The translations under genes were made by a program, and so were the position numbers. Positions 3,679-49,172 of a stretch of 64,000 nucleotides of DNA are shown piece by piece; the first letter of the stretch is position 1, and every line of letters begins with the position of its first letter. Below the pieces are notes generated by a model. It was not told the origin of the DNA, did no database searches, and saw only the letters and a list, made by a program, of their open reading frames with translations. The DNA is from a virus, in the IMG/VR virus record IMGVR_UViG_3300045988_140747; one strand, written 5' to 3'.

Positions 3679-3805
3679 TGGCTGTTTATCAATAAAAAGG
3701 AGGAGCGTCTTATGAACGGAAAACCGCCGAGAGATCCGAAGTATCCATACAAATTGCCTATTTGGTGGTGAAGTTCCAATCCATGCCGGGAGCACCCGGC
3801 TTTAT

Positions 3806-3881
3806 CGGGTATTGGCGCAGACGGTAGCGCGCCAGATTTGGGATCTGGAGGCCGTCAGTTCGAATCTGACATATCCGACCA
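3806..3881 (+). tRNA. tRNA-Pro (anticodon TGG), CCA encoded
   Basis: Hand-folded cloverleaf: acceptor cgggtat/atatccg, D stem gcgc/gcgc, anticodon stem ccaga/tctgg with loop tTTGGga, T arm gtcag-ttcgaat-ctgac. Confidence 0.85.
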
Positions 3882-3932
3882 GCGGATCATCTCCGCATCG
3901 ATTGTCAACACATATAGTCTGGAGGAAATGAA

Positions 3933-4100
3933 ATGCCTACGCAGAGAGAATTTTCTGAAGCTTTCAGGTGGATGTTCGGAAGCACTTGGAGAGGAGCTGT
4001 TGAGACGTACAAGGAAATGAAACGGAAGGATCCACAGTATATCGAAACAGTCGTGGCCGTCTACCGGAAAAATAGCCGAGATGCGTTTTATAACGACTGA
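3933..4100 (+). CDS. Small hypothetical protein (55 aa) between two tRNAs
   Basis: ATG follows GGAGGAAATGA. It translates to MPTQREFSEAFRWMFG...YRKNSRDAFYND and is below the ORF-track cutoff. Confidence 0.35.
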   Translation: MPTQREFSEAFRWMFGSTWRGAVETYKEMKRKDPQYIETVVAVYRKNSRDAFYND

Positions 4101-4110
4101 TTATCAATAC

Positions 4111-4187
4111 GGGCTAGTAGCTCAGTCGGTCAGAGCCGGCAGCTCATAACTGCTTGGTCGCGGGTTCAAGTCCTGCCTGGCCCACCA
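4111..4187 (+). tRNA. tRNA-Met (or Ile2) anticodon CAT, CCA encoded
   Basis: Acceptor gggctag/ctggccc, D arm gctc-agtcggtca-gagc, anticodon loop ctCATaa, T arm gcggg-ttcaagt-cctgc. Not initiator-like: there is no GGG/CCC anticodon stem. Confidence 0.85.
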
Positions 4188-10426: not shown

Positions 10427-10674
10427 CAGAAAAGATATATGGGCTCACTGAAAAAAGGCGAGGACTCTACGAAGTTCCCATCGAATATACAAAGCGAGGG
10501 AAGATGATAGTTCATGCTGATTCTTATGAAGAGGCCATCCAGAATGCGCTGGATCCGATGTCTGGATCACTTCCGGTTGATGATGAGGTTGTAATGGGGA
10601 GCCTACACATTCCGTTCGAAAAGGAAAATGCTCCATTACACATCAGATTCAAAGAATTGCCAAAATGGCTATGA
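10423..10674 (+). CDS. Hypothetical protein (83 aa)
   Basis: ATGA overlap with the upstream gene. Confidence 0.45.
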   Translation: MTEKIYGLTEKRRGLYEVPIEYTKRGKMIVHADSYEEAIQNALDPMSGSLPVDDEVVMGSLHIPFEKENAPLHIRFKELPKWL

Positions 10675-10894
10675 GATGCAACAGCTGCATTTTGTATCGC
10701 AAACCATTGCTTTCGTGCATTTTGCATAAAAAATCATATAATCGCATAAAAAGTCATTGTAGTACATTATCGACCTATGGTATCCTGTATCCTGTCAAGA
10801 ATGAGCGAGAGGCAAACAGCATCTTGCGATTTCCGATCGGCAACAGCAGGAAACCGATCCGACATGTTCCCGACATTTTGCCGGGAACATTCAT

Positions 10895-10970
10895 GCAGCT
10901 GTAGTTCAATTGGCAGAGCATCGGATTTCCAATCCGAGTGTTGCGGGTTCGATCCCCGTCAGCTGCTCCA
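10895..10970 (+). tRNA. tRNA-Gly (anticodon TCC), CCA encoded
   Basis: Acceptor gcagctg/cagctgc, anticodon stem tcgga/tccga with loop ttTCCaa, T arm gcggg-ttcgatc-cccgt. Confidence 0.85.
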
Positions 10971-11397
10971 CCTGCGTAATGCAGGCCATGAATTGACCAA
11001 CCTTCACACTGCCATGCTCGGCTCTCCATCACGGTGGAGCGGCAGGCTGCAAGCCGAGCGCTTTATATGCGGATAATGGATGCCTTAAATGCGAGGCCCG
11101 GTTCGATACCGGAAATCCGCGCGAAAGGGGTGGATGAGATGCTGGAGCTATATTATGTGAAAGGCACTGACCTTGTATACGTCCGTCTCATCTGTCCGAA
11201 AGTGCGATCGATTTCGGCTAAAGGCAACGGAATCCACTCCAATCGTATCAACCGTTCAGCAAAGGCTGAGACTGGAGGCGGAGGTTGTAGATACTCTAGG
11301 GGCCGACCTGCAACTCGGTTTGAAAGCGGATGTTAAGTAAAGTGGAAGATTATCATTCCCATTGCTGCTGATACCAGCTGATAGTCTTCCACTTTTA
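10971..11397 (+). ncRNA. Candidate structured non-coding RNA, unclassified, ending in a 15-bp terminator-like hairpin
   Basis: No credible ORF. Hairpins and helices seen: cctgc-gtaat-gcagg, nested gctcggc...gccgagc, a T-arm/acceptor-like fragment ccgg-ttcgata-ccgg + tccgc (about 11069-11116), and a long-range 9-bp helix 11127-11135/11232-11240. The terminal hairpin is 11341-11355/11379-11393 followed by TTTT. Confidence 0.35.
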
Positions 11398-11400
11398 TAA

Positions 11401-11486
11401 GGGCGTGTAGCTCAGAAGGTAGAGCACGCGTGAGTCCAAAAGGTCTCCGCCAGAAGAAGTCGTCGGTTCGATTCCGACCACGCCAA
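11401..11486 (+). ncRNA. tRNA-like RNA without an anticodon loop (pseudo-tRNA or tRNA mimic)
   Basis: Canonical acceptor (gggcgtg/cacgcc), D arm (gctc-agaaggta-gagc) and T arm (gtcgg-ttcgatt-ccgac). The anticodon-arm position is occupied by a closed hairpin GCG(t)GAG-t-CC-aaaa-GG-t-CTCCGC. No CCA is encoded. Confidence 0.45.
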
Positions 11487-11590
11487 GACCGAAAGTATTG
11501 AAAGATCATGTGTGGTGCGCAACATACGCGGTCTGGAGACACATAGTAGGCAACAAGGCTCGTGTTAGGTACAAGCACGGGTCAAATGCA

Positions 11591-11624
11591 AGAGAGCTGA
11601 AGACGTTCAGCTCTCTTTCTTTAT
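11591..11624 (+). terminator. Rho-independent terminator
   Basis: 11-bp stem agagagctgaa/ttcagctctct, loop gacg, then TTCTTT. Confidence 0.7.
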
Positions 11625-11714
11625 GCAGTCGTACTCAAGTCTGGTTTAAGAGGGCTGTTTTGAAAACAGCTAGGTGGGTAACACGCGCGGGTTCGAATCC
11701 TGCCGGCTGCGCCA
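11625..11714 (+). tRNA. tRNA-Ser (anticodon TGA), type II, CCA encoded
   Basis: Acceptor gcagtcg/cggctgc, anticodon stem gctgt/acagc with loop ttTGAaa, long variable arm taggtgggtaacacgc, T arm gcggg-ttcgaat-cctgc. Confidence 0.8.
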
Positions 11715-11743
11715 TGAAAATAAAAATGAAGGAAGGCCATTTT

Positions 11744-12418
11744 ATGAAAGTTGAAAGACCCAGTTATCAAATCCTTACTGAGATCTCAAAAGACGGCATC
11801 GAAGAGCTGCAGCGAATTGAACGCGTAGCACGAGTCTGCTATAAGAGCGAGGATAAGATCGTCCCGGATGGCTCATCGGCGAAGAAGCTGGTGAGCTTTC
11901 TTATTAAGCAGGAGCATGAGGCCATGCTGGAGCACTCCCAGCTGTCTGTGCTGTTCACCTGTGACAGGGCCATTGCAAATGAACTGGTACGTCACCGCAT
12001 TGCATCCTTCGCGCAGGAGAGCACCCGCTACTGCAACTATGCAGGGGAGAAATTCGGATGGGAGACTACGGTTATCAAACCGTACTACATTCCCGGCGAT
12101 GGGTCTGACGCATATAAAGCTTGGTTCGATGCCTGCTGGGAAGCAGAGCAAAGCTATCTGAAGCTCATTCGGAGTGGTCTTCGTCCTGAACAAGCACGCT
12201 GCGTATTGCCGTTGTGCCTGAAGACAGAGATCGTGGTGACTGCCAACTACCGTGAGTGGCGTAACATTTTCAAATTGCGTACACATATCGCCGCTCACCC
12301 TCAGATGCGCCAGCTTATGTGCCCGCTTCTTCTCGAGCTGCAGAAGAAGATCCCGGTTGTGTTTGATGATATCTACACCTACTGGCCGAATGATGACCAG
12401 ACCGGTAAGAAAGCTTAA
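11744..12418 (+). CDS. thyX: Flavin-dependent thymidylate synthase ThyX
   Basis: ThyX signature RHRIASFAQESTRY (RHRxxSxxxxSxRY). ATG 11744 follows GAAGGAAGG. The upstream part of the track ORF runs through tRNA-Ser. Confidence 0.85.
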   Translation: MKVERPSYQILTEISKDGIEELQRIERVARVCYKSEDKIVPDGSSAKKLVSFLIKQEHEAMLEHSQLSVLFTCDRAIANELVRHRIASFAQESTRYCNYAGEKFGWETTVIKPYYIPGDGSDAYKAWFDACWEAEQSYLKLIRSGLRPEQARCVLPLCLKTEIVVTANYREWRNIFKLRTHIAAHPQMRQLMCPLLLELQKKIPVVFDDIYTYWPNDDQTGKKA

Positions 12419-12444: not shown

Positions 12445-12534
12445 CGAGGATTCGCCAAGATGGTAATGCAGCGGAATTTGACTCCGCCAGTGCTGAATAA
12501 GCGATCGCAGGTTCGAGCCCTGCATCCTCGGCCA
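12445..12534 (+). tRNA. Atypical tRNA, anticodon TTG (Gln) with a 19-nt variable region
   Basis: Acceptor cgaggat/atcctcg, Gln-like D arm tcgccaagatggtaatgca, anticodon stem gcgga/tccgc with loop atTTGac, extra segment cagtgctgaataagcgatc, T arm gcagg-ttcgagc-cctgc, G73 and CCA. Confidence 0.5.
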
Positions 12535-18760: not shown

Positions 18761-20163
18761 ATGCCACAGATCCTGAAGCCGCAGGAAGGACCTCAGACAC
18801 GGTTCATGTCTACCCCCGCGAGCATTTGTATCTATGGCGGCTAGGAGCAGCCGGCGGAGGGAAAAGCTTTGGATTGCTCATGTCTGCCCTTCGGTACAAG
18901 AACGTGCCCGGGTTTGGCTGCACCATATTCCGAAAGAACTTCAACCAGATATTTGCACAGGGCGGTCTGTGGGATGAATCCATGCAGATCTACCAAGACG
19001 TCAAGGGAGCTTGTCCCAAGTTCGCTCGAGGGCAATGGTTGTTCTGCAATGACAAAGGTGAGGTTTTATCAAAGGTCACGTTTGCTCATATTGAGAAGGA
19101 TGAGGACGTCCATAAATGGCAAGGCTCTCAGATCTGCGAATTGGGATTTGACGAGCTAACTCATTTTACCGAGAAAACGTTCTTCTATATGCTATCCCGT
19201 AACCGATCTGCCTGTGGTGTTGAGCCATTTGTCAGGGCTACATGCAACCCTGATGCGAATTCATGGGTGGCAAAGTTCATTGAGTGGTGGATCGATCAGG
19301 ATACTGGATACCCAATCCCTGAACGGAGTGGGAAGATTCGATGGTTTATCCGCCGGGATGAAGTGCTCTACTGGGCTAATACCCGGCAAGAGCTCTGGAA
19401 AAGATTCAATCTCACTACAGAAGAGGAGAAAAGTGAGCCAAGGTCTGTCACGTTCATAATGTCTAAGTTGAGCGACAACAAGGAACTTATGAAGGTGAAC
19501 CCGGGCTACCTTGCAAACCTAAAGGCGCTGTCTCAGATCGAGAGAGAGCGCCTTCTTTATGGAAACTGGAAGATCAAGGCCGCTGCTGGTCTCTACTTCA
19601 AGAGATCACAGCTTGGAGAGATTCTCAATAGTGTCCCTGCGGATGTCATCCAGTGGGTAAGATGCTGGGACTTGGCTGCTACGGAAAAGGACGACAAGGG
19701 AGACCCGGCATATACTGCTGGCGTCCTTATGGGAAAGCGGAAGAATGGACGATATGTCATTGCCAACGTTGTCAACAAGCAGATGTCCGCATCTGATGTC
19801 CGAAAGACCATCAAGCTCACGGCACAGTCTGATAGAGCTGCCTATAAGCGAGTCCGAGTTCGATTGCCACAGGATCCCGGACAGGCCGGTAAGGAACAGG
19901 CGGAGTCCTACATAAAGTTCTTGGCCGGCTTTGATGTTACGACTGTGGCAGAAAGCGGAACCAAAGAGGCAAGAGCGGAGCCAATGGCTGCACAATGGCA
20001 GGCTGGAAACTTCGACATTGTATACGGCGAGTGGAATGAAGAGTACCTGCTTCAGCTTGAAAACTTCCCAGATGGAAAGTTCAAGGATATGGTCGATGCT
20101 TCCGCAAATGCTTTTGCAGAGATCGAATCCAGATGCGCATTCAACCTCAGCAACCTGATTTGA
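18761..20163 (+). CDS. Terminase large subunit, apparently split by a frameshift at ~18842
   Basis: RBS plus ATG 18761 gives MPQILKPQEGPQTRFMSTPASICIYGG and then TAG. The -1 frame continues (L)GAAGGGKSFGLL (Walker A), LGFDE (Walker B) and nuclease-domain acidic residues through to 20163. Confidence 0.8.
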
Positions 20164-20189
20164 TTACCATACCGGAAGGAGATATAAGC

Positions 20190-23100
20190 GTGGATAAGAT
20201 GACACAAGAGGATCGCATCAAGCACTATGCGCATCTGATTCAGCGTCAGACTGGCAAGGCTGTGCGACCGTACCGTGCTGACGGATACGTCAACATGGTT
20301 AACCGGTATGGCACATCGAAAGATTCGTCCGAGCAGTACAACTTCGTACCGGATGCGCCGGTTGCTGACGATGTGCTTGAAATGCACTATGAAAACAACG
20401 GCCTGTTTTCCAAAATCATCGATATGCCGGCAGAGGAAGCCATCAAGCACGGCTTTACCATCGAAGACGTAGAGGACGGAAAGCTGGCTGACTTCTACAG
20501 CGAAGCTCTCGACGAACTCAACTGGGAAGAGAACGCCATGACCGCCGTTAAGTGGGCAAGACTGTTCGGCGGCTCCATTGCCATTATGCTTGTGAACGAT
20601 GGTCGTGGGCTCGAGGAACCTCTCGATTGGAAGAACATTCAATCCATTGACGATATCCGAGTGTACGACAGATCGCTCATTAGCCCTGACTACAGTAGCG
20701 TGTTCAACTACGATCCGCAGGATCCATTCCGAGTTCGCGGCAGTCGGCTTGGTATGCCCGAATACTATGATGTCTATAGCAAGTATGGATCATTCCGAGT
20801 ACACGACAGCAGATGCCTTGTTTTCCAAAACGGCGTCCTGCCTGAAAATGCAACTAACTCCATCTACCAGTTTTGGGGAATCCCGGAGTACATCAGGCTG
20901 AACAAGGCCATCCGGGATGCGGACATTGCACACCGCAGCGCACCCAAGTTGCTGGAACGGTCTGTGCAGCCCATCTATAAGATGAAGGATCTCGCGGCTG
21001 AGTTGGCTACAGAACAGGGCGAAGACCGCATTCTCAAACGTCTGCAGGTTATCGACACTGCACGAGGAATCCTCAACAGCCTTGTCATCGATGCCGATGG
21101 CGAAGACTATGACTTCAAGACGTTCCAGTACAACGGTATCACTGACGTTATCAGTGCATCCTGCAATATGCTCGCTGCCCTGTCCAATATTCCACAGATC
21201 ATTCTGTTTGGGCAGACCATCAGCGGAATGAGCAGCACTGATGACACCAGCATGGAGAACTACTACAACTACGTTGAGCGCATTCAGAAAAGGATGCTGC
21301 GGAGTAATCTCCGATATCTACTGTCTGTTGTTTTTCAAGCCGGCCTTGCAACCGGAGAGGTTGATGAAGTCCCAAAGCTGAAGGTTCAGTTCAATCCTCT
21401 GTGGTCTGTCAGCGATTCCGACCAAGCAACTCTGGATCAGCAGAAGGCCCAGACCGAGCAGATCAAGGCGCAGACTGCCCAGATCTATGTCGGTATGGAA
21501 GCCATTGATCCCAGCGAGGTTCGTTCCAAGCTTGCAGATAGCGATGACTTTGATGTCGAGAATATGCTTGATGAGTATACTGAAGAGGAACTCGAAGCTG
21601 GAATGCCAAGCAATGATGAGAGCCAAGAGCAAACGCCTGATGATGGACAGCCTGCTACTCCTGATTCTCAACCTACTGGAAATGATGAAAAAGCCGGACC
21701 TGGTCAGCTCCTGAACGAAAAGACTCTCTCTGCTGTTGGAAACAATGCAAAAGATCCTGCCACCATGGAGACTAAGGTTAGCTCCGATCCTCATGAAAAC
21801 AAGGAAGGCACTGAAGGTGATGCCCCTGCATCCGCCCCTGCTGCGACGAAAAAGCCTTCCGACATGGACCCTGAAGAAAAGGCCAAAGCTGCACAATCGC
21901 GCCAAAACAAGGCAAAAGACCGGGAGGACTCACTTCGTACCGATGACAACAATTCTCACTCCGAAGATCAAAAAGGCTCGGTGGGCGTTATTGTGGTCAA
22001 TGGGGGCAGAGTCCTGAATGGTACTCGGCACAACGATTTTGGCTACGGCCTTGTCTGTGGCCCCGGCGGTCACATTGAAGAAGGTGAAACTCCGGAACAG
22101 GCTGCATTCCGAGAGACCAAAGAAGAATTCGGTATTACGCCCAAAAGCCTTATGTGCCTTGGACAAGGGCCTAAAGAAAAAGATACCGGCCTGAAGCCGT
22201 ACCTGTTCCTGTGCACCGAATACTACGGCACTCCGAACTGCGAAGATCTCGAGATGACCGGCGCCAAGTTCAGTACCATTGAGGAATTGAACGAAAAGGC
22301 CGAATCCTTGTTCGGCCCGTTCGCAGACGGCCTGAACATCCTGATGGACTGCCTTGAAACCGGCATCTTCTATACAGACCCAGCGGAAGGCGTAACTGGC
22401 GAGAAACTGAATTCTCATCTGGAAAAGGCTATGAATGCCGATGGAGGTCAAGGATCTGGCAATTTTGGACACGAAGGAAGGCCAGGAAAAGTAGGAGGAA
22501 GCGCCGAGTCGCACAACTTTGGAGGGCTCAAAAACAGCGAGCTTTCATCTAAGATGAATGGCGTGTTCGATGATGCAAAGATAGGAACTCGCTTTTCCGT
22601 AAAGATGAACGGCGTTGCCGGAAAAGATGATTATGAAATCTATAAAGTTTCAGATGGATTCTACGTTCGGAGCAAAAAAGGCGGAAACGATATTGTCAAA
22701 TCAGTTGACAAGCTCGTCGAGAATTGCGGTGTATACGTCACAAATCTGACCTCTGACAAGGTCATGTATAAGGAAGCCAACATTGAAGTTGGTGAACCCG
22801 AAACAGAAGAAGCACAAAGTTTTACTAGAGCATACGAATCTTGCAGAAAGGAAAGAGAGCGACTTGCATCTGGGAATTATAAAATCACTGAAGTTGATGA
22901 TGCTACCGCAAAAAAGTATGCTGACACTTTGAACAAAGCAAGCAAGGCAAAAATCGCAAAACTTGCTATTGATGACCCACAGTTCAAGGCTGTTGTTGAT
23001 AACATTTCTGCGTATACACAGGGAGAATATGTATATCAGCGAAAAGCGACTGAAAAATTCATCAGCAACGGATATGACCCATCTAACGATGCAATCCTCG

Positions 23101-26100
23101 GAGATCGACTTACCGATTCTTTGTATTTATGCAAAGACATGTACAAGGGACAAAATCTTTCCGTTTCCAGTGCAAGTGTAACGGAAGGCATGGCGAACTT
23201 GACAAAGGCTGTGAATTGCTCCGATCCGTTTGACGGAGAGCTGTACCGAGTTGCTCAGGACAGAAGCCTGATGAAAACTGCAGACTCTGGAAACCAGGGA
23301 GTATACACTCCGCCAAAACCCGGAGAAACAATATCCATAGTTGCTCCTACTTCGTTCTCAAAGGACAAAGCGGCTATTGATAAGATTGCCAAAGATAAGT
23401 CCGGTGATATCATCTATTACACTGTTCAACCGGGTGCTCATGCCGTAGATGTATCAAAGCTGTCACCGTATAAGCAAGCTGAACTCCTTACCTGCGGAGA
23501 ATATGAGGTTGTCAGTGTTGATTCCAAGCCTCAGAGAGTTGTTATGACTCAGATCGATCGTTTCACAAGTGAAACAATCGATTCGCTGAAGGCCAACAGA
23601 GGGGCAACAGTTGACGACGGTTTTGTTAAATTTCCAATCCTTGAAACTCATGTGACTCTTCGCCAGAAAGAACCTATTCACATGGATTCTTGCGATGATA
23701 GCATCCACAGATACAGACCCGACGATTTTTCCGAACGGATGGTCTATGATGACGAGATTGATCTCGATGGTGGCCCAGGGTCTGGGAACTATGGGCACGA
23801 GGGCGTTCCGGGGCAAGTGGGCGGAAGCGCCCCTAGCACAAGCGGTCCGATTTCCAAAAGTAGCTTTCAGAAGGGCTCTGGTCACTTTGAAGTAACTGGT
23901 GACGTGAAAGATATGTATCTCACAAAGCCGGCAAGAACCAGAATTGAAGGGGCTATTAAAACGGTGAAAACCGCTAATGACCTCAAGAAATATCTTGAAA
24001 ATCAAGGAATCAAGCTTGAAACGTCTTATGAACCACTCAAGAAAGCGATGGATAGAGAGATCCCGTCCATCAAGGAGCAGGCTGATTATGTGATTGCCGC
24101 TATTGAGCAGTACAAGGATCTCGGTGGGCTTAAAGCGCTTAAAGCGGTTCACATCTATGACCATGATATTGATGCACAGGCGCAGTACAGCTATCGCGCA
24201 AAAGGGGAAGGTGATGTTCCAGACGAGGGACATTTGTATATCAGCTACATGGCTAATGGAGAGCAAATTATGCATGAGTTTGCTCACGCCTATGCTGACT
24301 CCACAAAGCCTGATGGAATGGATGTTGTCGAATGGTCAGCGAAGCTCAACCAAGAAGCAGGCCTTTCGAAAAACGTAAAATCATACTTCGGCGCGGACAG
24401 CGATGCTAAAGAAGCTGAGCGTTTTGCCAATGCGATTGGGTACGCAATTGCGGATGGAGATGGACCGGATGGCCGACTTGCATTTGCTGCAAATGTTGCG
24501 AATATCGTAAGAAATTCCAATGGATCGTCCGCAGGAATGTCCGGCGGAAACCTTGCATTTAGAAGCATGATTCCGAAAGACAGCTACTTCAACTCTCCAT
24601 CCTACAAGAAGGCTGTTGAAGCCTACCGCGGAGCCATCAGAAAGCATGACGATGCATGGAAGAAATATAGCGACCTCAAGGAAGATCTCAAAGCAGAGTC
24701 CGCTCCGAAGCCTGAATCTGAATGGGATGATAACGACATCTTCGAAGATCTCATTGGCCATCGTCCCATGACCTACACAGAAAAAGGCAAGAAGATCAAG
24801 TCTGAGATGGACAAAGCCTTCAAGGATTCACAGGAATATGACCATGAGCAGACCGAGACTGGCGACAAGCTTCGCGAGATCAAGAAAAAAGAGCATGACA
24901 AGCAGGTGAAGGGCATCCATTTCCAACCGCCTGCTGATGCCTCCTCCGATGATTATGAGGGCTTTACCACTAAGACCACCGGAACGTCCGCCTATGATGA
25001 CTACATCAACGGAGAAAGGAACGGAGGCCGAATTGCAGAGATGTCCCCGGCGGAATATCTTCAAAGATGCGCCTATCAGGTCTTTGAAGATGCTACCATT
25101 GAGTCCACTCTGGCTGCTATCGATGAGTCCAACGTTAAGAAGTATGCCGATATGATGAAGAATGGCACAAAGTTTGACATGCCGTATCTCAATTTCATGT
25201 CTGGTCAGCAGGAAGGACGGCATCGAGCCGCTGCTGCCATGCAAGCTGGTATCGATAAGATCCCTGTGCTTGTGGTCGGAGAAAGGTTTGCCAAGTATGA
25301 CGGAGGAAAAGGCTCTGGCAACTGGGGCCATGAAGGCCGAAAAGGGAAGCTCGGTGGATCGGCCCCCGGCGGAGGCGTGCACAACCGGATTTCCGAAGAG
25401 GGCGGATCCTACACCTCATTCTCAAAGAAGCAGAAGAAACTTGCCACAACGCACTTTGCCGGCAAGGGGGAATTTCACAATCTCCCGGACAAGACTAAGA
25501 TTGTTGCCGATCTTGTGTTTGGACCGTACTCTATGGTCTATAACGCCAAGCATGGCATGTTCATCGGCGAAGACGGTGCCGAAATGAACCCGGATGATGT
25601 GACAGACGCTTGCGACAAAGACACTCCTGTTCGAGTGTTCATTCCGAATGAGGCGAGCACGAACTACAACAAGCTCAAGCAGTCCTTTGATGTTTCCCCG
25701 TCCAGAATGGCTGAAGCAAAAGCCTATTCACAGCCAAAGCAAGCCGACAAAGACCTCCGAAAGAAAACCGGAGAGGTGTGGAAAACGCTTACTGATGGTC
25801 AGAAAAAGTCACTTTATGATTATACCGGCGGCTTTTTTATGGACATCAACCACTCCCTGAGAAGTGGTCATGGAACTGTGCAGAACCAGTCCAAGGCCTC
25901 TGACATCACGACCGCCATAGCTAAGAGCAAAACTCAAGAGGATATGTGGCTGTATCGAGGAGTTGGCTTGGAGGCTGTTCCTAAGATGTTTGGTATTGAC
26001 TGGGGAAAAATACAGAAGAATGACATTGGTTCTATTGTTGGAATGTCCGGCTCTGACGACGGCTTTATGTCGTGCGGTACAACTGCTGGCACTGGATATG

Positions 26101-26369
26101 GAGACGTAACCGATGTCAACATGAAGATTTTCGTTCCGAAGGGGTCTGAGGCTCTATACGCAGAGCCGTTCTCAAAGTATGGAAGCAACCCGGATGCCAA
26201 GAACTGGAACGGCGAAAGCGATCAGACCTATTTTTCCTCCGAAATGGAGACTATCTTGCAAAGAGGGTCTCATTTCCAATGCACAAAAGCCTACTACGAT
26301 GAGGACAAAAAGAAATACAGTATCGAAGTGGCTGTCACCGGACAAGAATACAAGGAGCTCAATTGGTGA
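20190..26369 (+). CDS. Portal protein (DUF1073-type) fused to a polyvalent effector array: Nudix, ART-like, zincin, ParB-like, C-terminal ADP-ribosyltransferase
   Basis: A single ORF is open 20133-26369, with a likely GTG start at 20190 after GGAAGGAG. It carries the Nudix box GGHIEEGETPEQAAFRETKEEFG, HEFAH, QQEGRHRAAAA, and the ART triad LYRG / FMSCGTT / SEMETILQRG. Confidence 0.75.
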   Translation: MDKMTQEDRIKHYAHLIQRQTGKAVRPYRADGYVNMVNRYGTSKDSSEQYNFVPDAPVADDVLEMHYENNGLFSKIIDMPAEEAIKHGFTIEDVEDGKLADFYSEALDELNWEENAMTAVKWARLFGGSIAIMLVNDGRGLEEPLDWKNIQSIDDIRVYDRSLISPDYSSVFNYDPQDPFRVRGSRLGMPEYYDVYSKYGSFRVHDSRCLVFQNGVLPENATNSIYQFWGIPEYIRLNKAIRDADIAHRSAPKLLERSVQPIYKMKDLAAELATEQGEDRILKRLQVIDTARGILNSLVIDADGEDYDFKTFQYNGITDVISASCNMLAALSNIPQIILFGQTISGMSSTDDTSMENYYNYVERIQKRMLRSNLRYLLSVVFQAGLATGEVDEVPKLKVQFNPLWSVSDSDQATLDQQKAQTEQIKAQTAQIYVGMEAIDPSEVRSKLADSDDFDVENMLDEYTEEELEAGMPSNDESQEQTPDDGQPATPDSQPTGNDEKAGPGQLLNEKTLSAVGNNAKDPATMETKVSSDPHENKEGTEGDAPASAPAATKKPSDMDPEEKAKAAQSRQNKAKDREDSLRTDDNNSHSEDQKGSVGVIVVNGGRVLNGTRHNDFGYGLVCGPGGHIEEGETPEQAAFRETKEEFGITPKSLMCLGQGPKEKDTGLKPYLFLCTEYYGTPNCEDLEMTGAKFSTIEELNEKAESLFGPFADGLNILMDCLETGIFYTDPAEGVTGEKLNSHLEKAMNADGGQGSGNFGHEGRPGKVGGSAESHNFGGLKNSELSSKMNGVFDDAKIGTRFSVKMNGVAGKDDYEIYKVSDGFYVRSKKGGNDIVKSVDKLVENCGVYVTNLTSDKVMYKEANIEVGEPETEEAQSFTRAYESCRKERERLASGNYKITEVDDATAKKYADTLNKASKAKIAKLAIDDPQFKAVVDNISAYTQGEYVYQRKATEKFISNGYDPSNDAILGDRLTDSLYLCKDMYKGQNLSVSSASVTEGMANLTKAVNCSDPFDGELYRVAQDRSLMKTADSGNQGVYTPPKPGETISIVAPTSFSKDKAAIDKIAKDKSGDIIYYTVQPGAHAVDVSKLSPYKQAELLTCGEYEVVSVDSKPQRVVMTQIDRFTSETIDSLKANRGATVDDGFVKFPILETHVTLRQKEPIHMDSCDDSIHRYRPDDFSERMVYDDEIDLDGGPGSGNYGHEGVPGQVGGSAPSTSGPISKSSFQKGSGHFEVTGDVKDMYLTKPARTRIEGAIKTVKTANDLKKYLENQGIKLETSYEPLKKAMDREIPSIKEQADYVIAAIEQYKDLGGLKALKAVHIYDHDIDAQAQYSYRAKGEGDVPDEGHLYISYMANGEQIMHEFAHAYADSTKPDGMDVVEWSAKLNQEAGLSKNVKSYFGADSDAKEAERFANAIGYAIADGDGPDGRLAFAANVANIVRNSNGSSAGMSGGNLAFRSMIPKDSYFNSPSYKKAVEAYRGAIRKHDDAWKKYSDLKEDLKAESAPKPESEWDDNDIFEDLIGHRPMTYTEKGKKIKSEMDKAFKDSQEYDHEQTETGDKLREIKKKEHDKQVKGIHFQPPADASSDDYEGFTTKTTGTSAYDDYINGERNGGRIAEMSPAEYLQRCAYQVFEDATIESTLAAIDESNVKKYADMMKNGTKFDMPYLNFMSGQQEGRHRAAAAMQAGIDKIPVLVVGERFAKYDGGKGSGNWGHEGRKGKLGGSAPGGGVHNRISEEGGSYTSFSKKQKKLATTHFAGKGEFHNLPDKTKIVADLVFGPYSMVYNAKHGMFIGEDGAEMNPDDVTDACDKDTPVRVFIPNEASTNYNKLKQSFDVSPSRMAEAKAYSQPKQADKDLRKKTGEVWKTLTDGQKKSLYDYTGGFFMDINHSLRSGHGTVQNQSKASDITTAIAKSKTQEDMWLYRGVGLEAVPKMFGIDWGKIQKNDIGSIVGMSGSDDGFMSCGTTAGTGYGDVTDVNMKIFVPKGSEALYAEPFSKYGSNPDAKNWNGESDQTYFSSEMETILQRGSHFQCTKAYYDEDKKKYSIEVAVTGQEYKELNW

Positions 26370-47539: not shown

Positions 47540-47842
47540 ATGAAAATTGTAGAGTTGACTACCATCGAGAGCGAAACTGTAGAGCGTGCTTTTTATGAGG
47601 CACAGTCGTATGAGTCGCTCATGGCGGTTCTCAGCCGACAGCTGAATGCCAATGCGAATCCTGAAACTGCCAAGATCCTTATGCATTATGCAGAGCTGTG
47701 CAGAGCTGCACAAATGAAGCTTAAAATGGCACAGGATACCGTCGTTTCGCGGTATATCGACCTGAACGATCCGCGATATGTCCGATACCAATTCGATTTC
47801 GGCAGGGAGGAGGTCCATCTCCTTGAAAAACAAGAGATTTGA
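47540..47842 (+). CDS. Small helical protein (100 aa) immediately upstream of and overlapping the rSAM gene
   Basis: GGGGAAGAG RBS. Its position resembles the accessory proteins of rSAM peptide-maturation cassettes. Confidence 0.45.
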   Translation: MKIVELTTIESETVERAFYEAQSYESLMAVLSRQLNANANPETAKILMHYAELCRAAQMKLKMAQDTVVSRYIDLNDPRYVRYQFDFGREEVHLLEKQEI

Positions 47843-49172
47843 GGACTACGGAAATACAGTCCAAAGACTGTACTGCCGAGACCTTCCTGAAACCAGCAGT
47901 GCATGCCGCAATATCACATTTCAGGTTACGAACGGCTGCAATCTTCGGTGTTCTTATTGCTATGAGCATCACAAGGGATCGGAGCATATGAGCGTCGAGA
48001 CCGGCAGAAAAATTGTTGATTACTTGCTTGACCAGTACGAACGCAACGATTCGGACTTCATCAACTGGAATACACGGGCTGTCGTTCTCGACTTTATCGG
48101 CGGAGAACCGCTGCTTGAGGCCACTTTGATTGAACAGATCTGTGATTACTGGTTTTCAGAATGCTTCCGTCGCGACATTCCACTGGCTCCGTTCACAAGG
48201 ATCTCTTTTGCTACGAATGGTCAACTCTGGTTTAGCTCTGAAGCGCAGCATTTGATTGAAAAGTATCACGACCTCATGTCAATCACAGTTAGCATTGACG
48301 GTGTTCAGGATCTTCACGATATGTACCGCCTCGATGAACACGGTAACGGGAGCTTTTCAAAAGCATGGGTCGCATTTCAAGATGGAAAGCGCCGCTTTGG
48401 ATGGGCCAACAGCAAAATGACTTTTGTTCCCGGGTCATTCCCGTACATTTCCGATAGTCTCAAGATGATGTTAGATGAAGGATGCTCTGATGTCGCTTGT
48501 AACTACGCATATGAACCTGTGTATACGCCTGCAGATGGACGGTCTCTGTATGAGCAGCTGAAGATTGTGTCCGACTACATTGTAGACAACAAACTGGATG
48601 TTGTTGTCACGATTCTCGATAGTCTGCTCGGCGGAAAAGCTAAAGACGACAAGAATTTCTGCGGTGGCACAGGCGCTATGTTATCGTTTGCGCCGGATGG
48701 GAGCGCCTATCCATGTATTCGATATGCTCCTATTAGCATTGGTGTGGAAAAAGCCAAGAAAGTCCGCTTTGGAAGCGTCTACGATGGACTATATGTCACT
48801 GATGAGCAAAAACGTGTAAAAGCGGATCTTGACGCAATTACTCGTACAACACAGTCTCCAAAAGAATGCTTGGAATGCCCTGTGTCTGCAGGGTGCGGCT
48901 GGTGTTCTGGCATGAATTATGAGGTGTTCGGTACAGCCAATAAGCGTACCACCTCTATTTGCTGGGCACACAAGGCCCGTGTCCTTGCAAGTGCCTATTA
49001 TTACAATCACCGGTATGTTGAGATCGGCGATTGCCTGCCAATCAAGGTCGAACTGCCTGAAACCGATGCGCTGAAGATCCTCTCCAAGCAAGAGTATTCT
49101 AAGTTTCAGAACTTAGAAAAAAAGGCGCTGCTGAAATTTGCTGATGCAGCAGGAATTAGAAGAAAGGAGTGA
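47778..49172 (+). CDS. Radical SAM / SPASM-domain maturase (anSME-like)
   Basis: CNLRCSYCYE (Cx3Cx2C), GGEPLL, and C-terminal auxiliary-cluster cysteines CGGTGAMLSFAPDGSAYPC ... CLECPVSAGCGWCSG ... C. The start may instead be TTG 47823, after GGGAGGAGG. Confidence 0.8.
   Translation: MSDTNSISAGRRSISLKNKRFEDYGNTVQRLYCRDLPETSSACRNITFQVTNGCNLRCSYCYEHHKGSEHMSVETGRKIVDYLLDQYERNDSDFINWNTRAVVLDFIGGEPLLEATLIEQICDYWFSECFRRDIPLAPFTRISFATNGQLWFSSEAQHLIEKYHDLMSITVSIDGVQDLHDMYRLDEHGNGSFSKAWVAFQDGKRRFGWANSKMTFVPGSFPYISDSLKMMLDEGCSDVACNYAYEPVYTPADGRSLYEQLKIVSDYIVDNKLDVVVTILDSLLGGKAKDDKNFCGGTGAMLSFAPDGSAYPCIRYAPISIGVEKAKKVRFGSVYDGLYVTDEQKRVKADLDAITRTTQSPKECLECPVSAGCGWCSGMNYEVFGTANKRTTSICWAHKARVLASAYYYNHRYVEIGDCLPIKVELPETDALKILSKQEYSKFQNLEKKALLKFADAAGIRRKE

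Follow-up and report, generated by a model that had tools for sequence, protein, structure and literature searches.

What does a phage keep in the 654 nucleotides (nt) that separate two of its tRNA genes? The question is raised by positions 10971-11624 of IMG/VR virus record IMGVR_UViG_3300045988_140747, the interval between tRNA-Gly and tRNA-Ser in the 64,000-nt stretch of DNA analysed here (the window), which is that of a tailed phage encoding a terminase, a portal fusion and a tape measure protein. An earlier note on this DNA had described the interval as non-coding and highly structured, and had preferred to read it as a large RNA of the ROOL/GOLLD class, with a new structured RNA as the fallback. 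The answer that we favour, with a probability of about 0.5, is that the interval holds a modular cassette set in a tRNA operon of the phage and not one large non-coding RNA, and that its tRNA-punctuated transcript would release a restrained small mRNA together with small RNAs. The borders of the interval are as follows.

10895-10970, + strand: left border, tRNA-Gly(UCC) with an encoded CCA, called by ARAGORN and scoring 65.8 bits on the Rfam tRNA model.
11625-11714, + strand: right border, tRNA-Ser(UGA) with an encoded CCA, called by ARAGORN and scoring 50.2 bits on the Rfam tRNA model.

Relatives were collected by a homolog search seeded with a 65-amino-acid (aa) frame at 11139-11336, which returned four metagenome-assembly protein clusters with syntenic contigs; later scans added two metagenome contigs and three from IMG/VR. 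Nine distinct versions are known (L numbers below), ranging from 98.6% down to ~71% identity, all on contigs of 66-76 kb and all from the human gut wherever a source is stated. The tRNA-Gly gene is present in all nine relatives. The 654-nt stretch folds at z = -4.0 against shuffled sequences. In an alignment of eight diverged members, the count came to 133 pairs in 20 helices; standard pairs occupy 94.8% of the 1063 pair cells, and both sides have changed in 49 of the 133 pairs. When the partners were slid by 1-3 columns, only 35-44% of the cells were paired and 5-10 pairs had changed on both sides, and none of 500 shuffles reached the observed values. The helices listed by hand in the earlier note are therefore real, being kept in the nine related contigs with compensatory changes, as the covariation check that it had proposed now shows.

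The structure does not, however, belong to the class that had been preferred. In a cmscan search of the window with Rfam 15 at gathering thresholds only tRNA was found, and ROOL, GOLLD, transfer-messenger RNA (tmRNA), intron and Y-RNA-type models gave no match in 10600-11800 at E <= 10 or in six homologous loci at E <= 5. Besides the missing model match, a coding frame takes up about a quarter of the region and the modules are separable, all of which speaks against a ROOL/GOLLD-class RNA. The fallback fares better, the region being conserved, covarying and outside every Rfam family except tRNA. A large non-coding RNA should lack a conserved reading frame, and here there is one of 49 codons.

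11139-11336, + strand: small protein gene, 65 aa in the window, with a conserved core of 49 codons (11139-11285), MLELYYVKGTDLVYVRLICPKVRSISAKGNGIHSNRINRSAKAETGGGG.

Judged by its ribosome-binding site, start codon, intact frame and third-position substitutions, the frame opening at 11139 is a small protein-coding gene. The earlier note had seen no credible open reading frame (ORF) here, and had allowed that a conserved small protein-coding gene would tell against its reading; such a gene, with clear codon periodicity, is opened by the in-frame ATG at 11139 within a listed 100-aa ORF. A long Firmicute-style Shine-Dalgarno sequence, AAAGGGGTGG (11124-33), lies 8 nt 5' of this ATG, and the relatives keep an AGGAG-type motif at that position and start with ATG, GTG or TTG. 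Codons 2-47 contain neither gaps nor stops across eight sequences. Variable columns number 7, 11 and 32 at codon positions 1, 2 and 3 (p = 2e-5), or 8, 11 and 31 when the most divergent member is included (p = 8e-5), and the periodicity is found in both halves of the frame (6, 8, 22 and 2, 3, 9), while conserved flanking segments have none (31, 31, 32 and 48, 36, 40). Codon differences are synonymous in 307 cases and non-synonymous in 178, compared with 29/454 and 56/428 in the other frames. Codon 50 (11286-11288) is TGA in L007, L008 and L175 and TGT elsewhere, and it toggles between sister lineages (L007 vs L015, L175 vs L014), so that the protein is either 49 aa long or 61-80 aa with an unconserved tail. 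The tails after codon 50 (11286-11336 in the window) carry indels, differ in length (61-80 aa in total) and lack periodicity; protein selection probably does not act on the window's 16 extra codons. The encoded peptide is basic and hydrophilic, without a hydrophobic helix.

The same gene is folded at the RNA level, from its ribosome-binding site onwards.

11121-11246, + strand: closed domain found by RNAalifold, bounded by helix P (11121-36/11231-46).
11139-43/11223-27, 11145-49/11185-89, 11161-64/11171-74 and 11196-201/11212-17 (loop GTGCGATCGA), + strand: inner helices of the closed domain.
11249-11287, + strand: hairpin inside the ORF, CAACCG/AGGTTG plus TTCAGC-AAAG-GCTGAG.
11302-11319, + strand: hairpin GCCGA/TCGGT with the conserved loop CCTGCAAC.

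Helix P pairs the Shine-Dalgarno region with codons 31-36. It comprises 14 pairs, five of them changed on both sides, and 93.8% of its cells are paired. A part of it (11127-35/11232-40) had been noticed before as a 9-bp long-range helix, which is correct except that the helix extends further on either side, and the competing pairing proposed for it (gatgaga/tctcatc) is weaker, with 47 of 56 cells paired. Within the domain, the hairpin at 11196 has both-side changes in four of its six pairs. The hairpin at 11249-11287 shows one A-U to U-A swap built from two synonymous changes. It covers codons 35-44, which are near-invariant in nucleotides, degenerate sites included, so that an RNA-level constraint comes on top of the coding constraint. 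The hairpin at 11302-11319 has two both-side-changed pairs (CCGA/TCGG to CTGG/CCAG), which are non-conservative for the amino acids.

Two elements of the interval resemble tRNAs, and on them depends how the transcript might be divided.

11069-11121, + strand: M2, tRNA-like, composed of acceptor stem (11069-74/11115-20), central hairpin (11082-86/11093-97) and T arm (11098-101/11109-12).
11401-11487, + strand: M5, tRNA-like, composed of acceptor stem, D arm (containing GG) and T arm (TTCGATT), without an encoded CCA.

M2, which the earlier note had rightly described as a T-arm-plus-acceptor fragment without a D arm or anticodon arm, spans 11069-11121, has the T loop TTCGATA and lacks a D arm, an anticodon loop and an encoded CCA. 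Each homolog, folded alone, forms its Y shape. The acceptor stem occurs as four unrelated sequences, all of them paired (GCGGAT, GCAGGC, GGAAATC and GGGAATC); the middle part varies freely, and the acceptor stem and T arm have been kept through four complete sequence replacements. It is not a four-arm cloverleaf, and neither ARAGORN nor Rfam (at E <= 10) reported a tRNA there. M5, the tRNA-like unit that had been placed after the terminal hairpin, does match the Rfam tRNA model (RF00005) at 11401-11486 with 41.3 bits, against a gathering score of 29, and its orthologs score 24-36 bits, with L007 under the threshold. Here, 28 nt replace 15 model positions of the anticodon arm, and in place of a 5-bp stem with a 7-nt anticodon loop there is a long interrupted stem with a non-conserved loop of 4-6 nt. 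ARAGORN made no call for M5 in the window. Covariation is seen in its acceptor stem and its T stem. Each of the window's six true tRNAs has an encoded CCA, which is absent from M2 and M5; common to M2, M5 and the true tRNAs is an A/U-rich 'TAT'-type leader directly 5' of the first G. Both elements thus consist of an acceptor stem on a consensus T arm with a variable remainder, as is the case for t-elements and mascRNA-type elements, and we infer that they may serve as tRNA-like processing signals.

The remaining modules flank these parts on either side.

10971-10985, + strand: hairpin H1, CCTGC/GCAGG (10971-75/10981-85), directly after the CCA of tRNA-Gly.
11009-11059, + strand: pseudoknot M1, with helices a (11009-13/11041-45), b (11016-23/11052-59) and c (11024-29/11034-39).
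11340-11394, + strand: 16-bp hairpin (11340-55/11379-94) with a 23-nt loop containing the invariant TGCTGCTGATAC (11363-74).
11504-11551, + strand: M6, made up of a hairpin (11504-14/11523-33) whose loop, GTGCGCAAC, is conserved and, 3' of it, an invariant single strand, GGAGACACATAGTAGGC (11535-51).
11557-11583, + strand: extra hairpin, present only in the clade of the window (window, L009, L013).
11590-11624, + strand: intrinsic-terminator-like hairpin of 12 bp with a T tract (scan match 11590-11617), abutting tRNA-Ser.

H1 is where the earlier note had put it. Its stem is invariant, and its loop differs in sequence and length across homologs. In M1, helices a and b cross and helix c is an embedded hairpin; the nested pair that had been proposed, gctcggc/gccgagc (11016-22/11053-59) around CTCCAT/GTGGAG (11024-29/11034-39), is confirmed, and the crossing third helix (11009-13/11041-45) had been missed. 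On alignment A5, 99.5% of the M1 cells are paired, with six both-side-changed pairs, compared with 32-45% paired in the slid controls. Helix a is 100% paired with three compensatory pairs, and when L175 is added one position is occupied by G-C, A-U and C-G. The 16-bp hairpin, previously given 15 bp at 11341-11393 and thus short by one pair, has 99.2% of its cells paired, six both-side-changed pairs and a folding energy of -26.2 kcal/mol. The terminator scan did not call it, and it may be a 3' stabiliser, a site of processing or a weak terminator. The M6 hairpin has both-side changes in six of nine pairs, and the single strand GGAGACACATAGTAGGC has no complementary site elsewhere in the window. 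The hairpin before tRNA-Ser has the GC-containing stem, short loop and T tract of an intrinsic terminator, in line with the second strong terminator that had been placed at 11591-11624, and at its site the other clades have a different GC-rich hairpin with a T tract (-17 to -22 kcal/mol).

That these modules are independent is suggested by the insertions tolerated at their junctions. In L001 only, a 42-nt terminator-like hairpin (L001 5885-5930) with a GAGA loop, a folding energy of -19.4 kcal/mol and a U5 tract behind it is inserted exactly between M1 and M2, and the extra hairpin in M6 is confined to the clade of the window, being absent in L001, L007, L008, L014, L015 and L175. Four inter-module helices proposed by RNAalifold (10995-98/11627-30, 11010-13/11549-52, 11290-94/11495-99 and 11545-51/11628-35) were rejected, as none shows any compensatory change; that at 11010-13/11549-52 is moreover outcompeted by the pseudoknot partner. 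In the last of the four, AGTAGGC from the invariant strand of M6 (11545-51) is complementary to G(U)CGUACU, positions 4-11 of tRNA-Ser (11628-35), so that the two could pair around the terminator, and this pairing is found in 8/8 sequences with zero compensatory changes. Targets of the invariant loops, in cis or in trans, were sought in the window and none were found.

Taken together, the parts suggest how the cassette would work. The whole unit would be co-transcribed with tRNA-Gly, which is probably the first product of the same transcript. RNase P needs little beyond an acceptor/T-arm stack, and because selection keeps exactly this stack in M2 and M5, we propose that RNase P cuts at their 5' ends (11068/11069 and about 11400/11401, respectively), as it does at tRNAs. 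In Firmicutes, tRNA precursors without CCA are substrates of RNase Z; since M2 and M5 lack CCA, RNase Z may cut their 3' ends. About four products would be released: a 98-nt pseudoknot RNA, a 'tRNA-like-capped' small mRNA of ~330 nt whose 3' end would be the 16-bp hairpin, M5 as a tRNA-like RNA, and a small RNA of ~130 nt that ends at the terminator. As helix P pairs the ribosome-binding site, translation of the small mRNA is predicted to be restrained, and it would take place mainly on nascent transcripts or after helix P opens.

Several points weigh against this proposal. Its promoter, RNA ends and cleavages are all inferred, and a sigma-70 scan called no promoter on the + strand, the conserved block at 10715-10805 described below included. 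The sample comprises nine sequences in about five lineages only, and the pairs were counted on the very sequences from which the consensus structure had come, which favours it. From the nucleotide conservation of codons 35-44 it is clear that the RNA accounts for part of what looks like conservation of the protein. For the protein, there was no match in Pfam, PHROGs or NCBIfam at E <= 10, and a profile search of 1.84 billion protein representatives returned clade members only, to which a further word-index search, using a profile of seven sequences, brought no additions; the AlphaFold model is poor (pLDDT 48), with just an N-terminal beta hairpin. Finally, the discriminator base of M2 is also where helix P begins on its 5' side, so that RNase Z would face a paired trailer, and M2 may therefore stay in place as a built-in 5' domain of the mRNA.

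A further reading, to which we give a fairly low probability, is that 11069-11400 (~330 nt) is a single dual-function RNA of an undescribed kind. At the 5' end of this RNA, a tRNA-like domain would be stacked on the helix controlling access to the ribosome-binding site; the coding body would be folded and selected both as RNA and as protein, and at the 3' end there would be a hairpin whose loop is invariant. Such an RNA might act as an RNA-protein unit with its own basic peptide or as a tRNA mimic engaging the host tRNA/translation machinery during infection. The sequestered ribosome-binding site would also fit a cis-acting leader or attenuator, in which the small ORF would be a leader peptide deciding termination at 11340-94 and 11590-617, before tRNA-Ser and thyX. 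Two terminator-like hairpins do lie 3' of a short ORF, and the stop position varies, the frame entering the 16-bp hairpin in L009 and L014. We consider this unlikely, as amino-acid selection over 47 codons is unusual for a leader peptide, no covarying alternative antiterminator pairing was found, the 16-bp hairpin has a 23-nt conserved loop and a short T run only, and the two tRNA-like elements would be left without explanation. These elements would be accounted for by the decay of a tRNA array, in which M2 and M5 would be tRNA pseudogenes on their way out, the hairpins would be terminators of the ordinary sort, and the ORF would be a small phage gene without any special relation to them. Phage tRNA islands gain and lose genes, ThyX relatives outside the clade are without any nearby tRNAs, and M2 is closer to a full cloverleaf in L014 and L175 and has an anticodon-like 7-nt loop in L007. 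However, pseudogenes should not hold their stems through complete compensatory replacement, as do the acceptor stem of M2 and the T stems, and neither the pseudoknot nor helix P nor the invariant loops are what remains of a tRNA, which makes decay decidedly unlikely.

The size of the interval, its location beside phage tRNAs, its many covarying helices and its pseudoknot would all fit a single ornate non-coding RNA of ~650 nt, be it ROOL, GOLLD or a new class, with the ORF as an incidental feature, and both ROOL and GOLLD have been described near tRNAs and in prophages (PMC5737381). This is nevertheless highly improbable in view of the missing covariance-model match in the window and six homologs, the codon periodicity, the conserved Shine-Dalgarno sequence and start, the lineage-specific hairpins (one of them terminator-like) inserted between modules, and the fact that zero inter-module helices covary. 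Extremely improbable is an arrangement resembling a type I toxin-antitoxin system, in which the mRNA of a toxic peptide would be silenced both by the fold-back on its ribosome-binding site and by an antisense RNA. In its favour are the small ORF, the long-range Shine-Dalgarno sequestration and a promoter-like match on the minus strand (11179-11152), the only sign of an antisense RNA, which would be antisense to the start region; but the match is 9/12 and lies inside the coding sequence, no antisense terminator is evident, and the peptide is basic and hydrophilic and lacks a hydrophobic helix.

The family is real but narrow, and is known from nine contigs. In the GenBank phage collection, DNA similarity to the stretch is limited to tRNA-Gly. 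Among 80 viral loci with a ThyX 70-78% identical to that of the window, none has tRNAs or any of the modules, and a scan of 185,579 bacterial and archaeal species, with one genome each, gave chance matches only, both of which argue for a narrow distribution. Pattern scans of IMG/VR yielded one new member (L175) and otherwise chance matches, and no further copies of any module or of the ORF were found within the window.

The surroundings of the cassette hold several features of their own. The stretch at 10715-10805, ~90 nt 5' of tRNA-Gly, is the best conserved of the locus and near-invariant down to the relatives of 71% identity. It contains TATAAT at 10737-42 and a direct repeat, GCATAAAAA[A/G]TCAT, at 10724 and 10744, with a spacing of 20 nt and present nowhere else in the window; the block is a candidate promoter or operator. 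A repeated promoter motif was considered and dropped, the upstream repeat GCATAAAAANTCAT being confined to this one place. Before tRNA-Gly, a leader hairpin at 10838-10863 (GATCGG/CCGATC) covaries and carries a conserved CAGCAG(G) in its loop. A kissing interaction of this motif with CTGCTG in the loop of the 16-bp hairpin (11363-11374), 500 nt downstream, is possible; the motif is missing from L001, which counts against it. On the other side, the 306-aa ORF listed at 11498-12418 is an artefact, an in-frame run through M6, the terminator and tRNA-Ser into thyX, whose true start is the ATG at 11744.

A second tRNA island of the window (3806-4187) consists of tRNA-Pro, a 55-aa ORF with a strong Shine-Dalgarno sequence (3933-4100) and tRNA-Met, and just 5' of it, at 3713-3772, lies a 19-codon ORF that also has a Shine-Dalgarno sequence. 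The small ORF between tRNA-Pro and tRNA-Met is counted as context for the modular cassette. Downstream of the cassette, the gene for tRNA-Gln(UUG) at 12445-12534 is 90 nt long, with a class-II-like extra arm in its variable region and a G as discriminator; its relatives likewise measure 87-92 nt, with the exception of L007, where it is an ordinary 77-nt tRNA without the arm. The 2078-aa ORF at 20133-26369 is a fusion of three domains, namely phage portal, NUDIX and, at the C terminus, one of the ADP-ribosyltransferase toxin type. In L001, a syntenic relative, genes 3' of thyX (L001 7432-10199; 12558-16555 in the window) encode PIG-L deacetylase, WbqC and TAGT domains, and the window has a gene for a radical SAM protein at 47778-49172; all of these may belong to one module for nucleotide or DNA modification.

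The cassette has no described RNA or protein family and is assembled from known kinds of parts. With it, human-gut phages gain a well-supported new family of structured RNA and a new family of small proteins, and it suggests that phage tRNA islands can hold non-decoding tRNA look-alikes that are kept by selection. If the look-alikes are processing signals, the logic of mitochondrial tRNA punctuation would operate in phages too, and annotation of phage genomes by tRNA scanning would, if this is true, miss functional elements. With RNA- and protein-level constraint overlapping in one 150-nt frame, the gene is also a compact natural example of dual constraint.

How, then, does the cassette compare with known systems? 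The ROOL model (RF03087) covers ~580 nt with six multistem junctions as well as three pseudoknots. The cassette is similar to ROOL and GOLLD (RF01998) in its length of several hundred nt, in its many helices and its pseudoknot, and in its place beside the tRNA genes of a phage or prophage (PMC5737381; PMC12286853), the last being a matter of context and not of the fold that defines those families. It differs from them in matching no covariance model and in having a translated-looking ORF, and while these RNAs form one fold and come from several phyla, the cassette is modular and comprises nine sequences from one phage clade. With tmRNA it shares the combination of an anticodon-less tRNA-like domain, a pseudoknot and a short frame. 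However, the frame of the cassette has its own Shine-Dalgarno sequence and start, neither ARAGORN nor Rfam called a tmRNA, and there is neither a G3:U70 pair nor a CCA end. In tmRNA the 5' and 3' ends of one RNA are joined, whereas the tRNA-like parts of the cassette are complete, separate units.

The tRNA cluster of phage T4 contains two stable RNAs that are not tRNAs, species 1 and 2, which are co-transcribed and co-processed with the tRNAs. The cassette would likewise place non-tRNA RNA within a phage tRNA cluster, although there is no sequence or model similarity to the T4 RNAs and these lack a structured small gene. The maturation gene of MS2 and the hok mRNA are both silenced by long-range pairing of the ribosome-binding site. 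This resembles the cassette, in which the Shine-Dalgarno sequence is paired with a segment ~100 nt downstream, inside the coding region; a kinetic mechanism, activating 3' processing and toxicity are features found among those systems, while the cassette is known from its sequence. Elements of the mascRNA type are tRNA-like processing signals. In plant mitochondria, tRNA-like t-elements within polycistronic transcripts provide RNase P and RNase Z signals for the formation of mRNA ends (PMC1920247). The cassette differs from t-elements in lying in a bacteriophage, where cleavage is a prediction from sequence, and in that M2 is stacked directly on the helix that hides the ribosome-binding site and may belong to the architecture of the mRNA instead of being a signal to be discarded. 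What it has in common with both t-elements and mascRNA are non-canonical tRNA folds, with an acceptor stem and a T arm, that lie at the borders of an mRNA and near true tRNAs.

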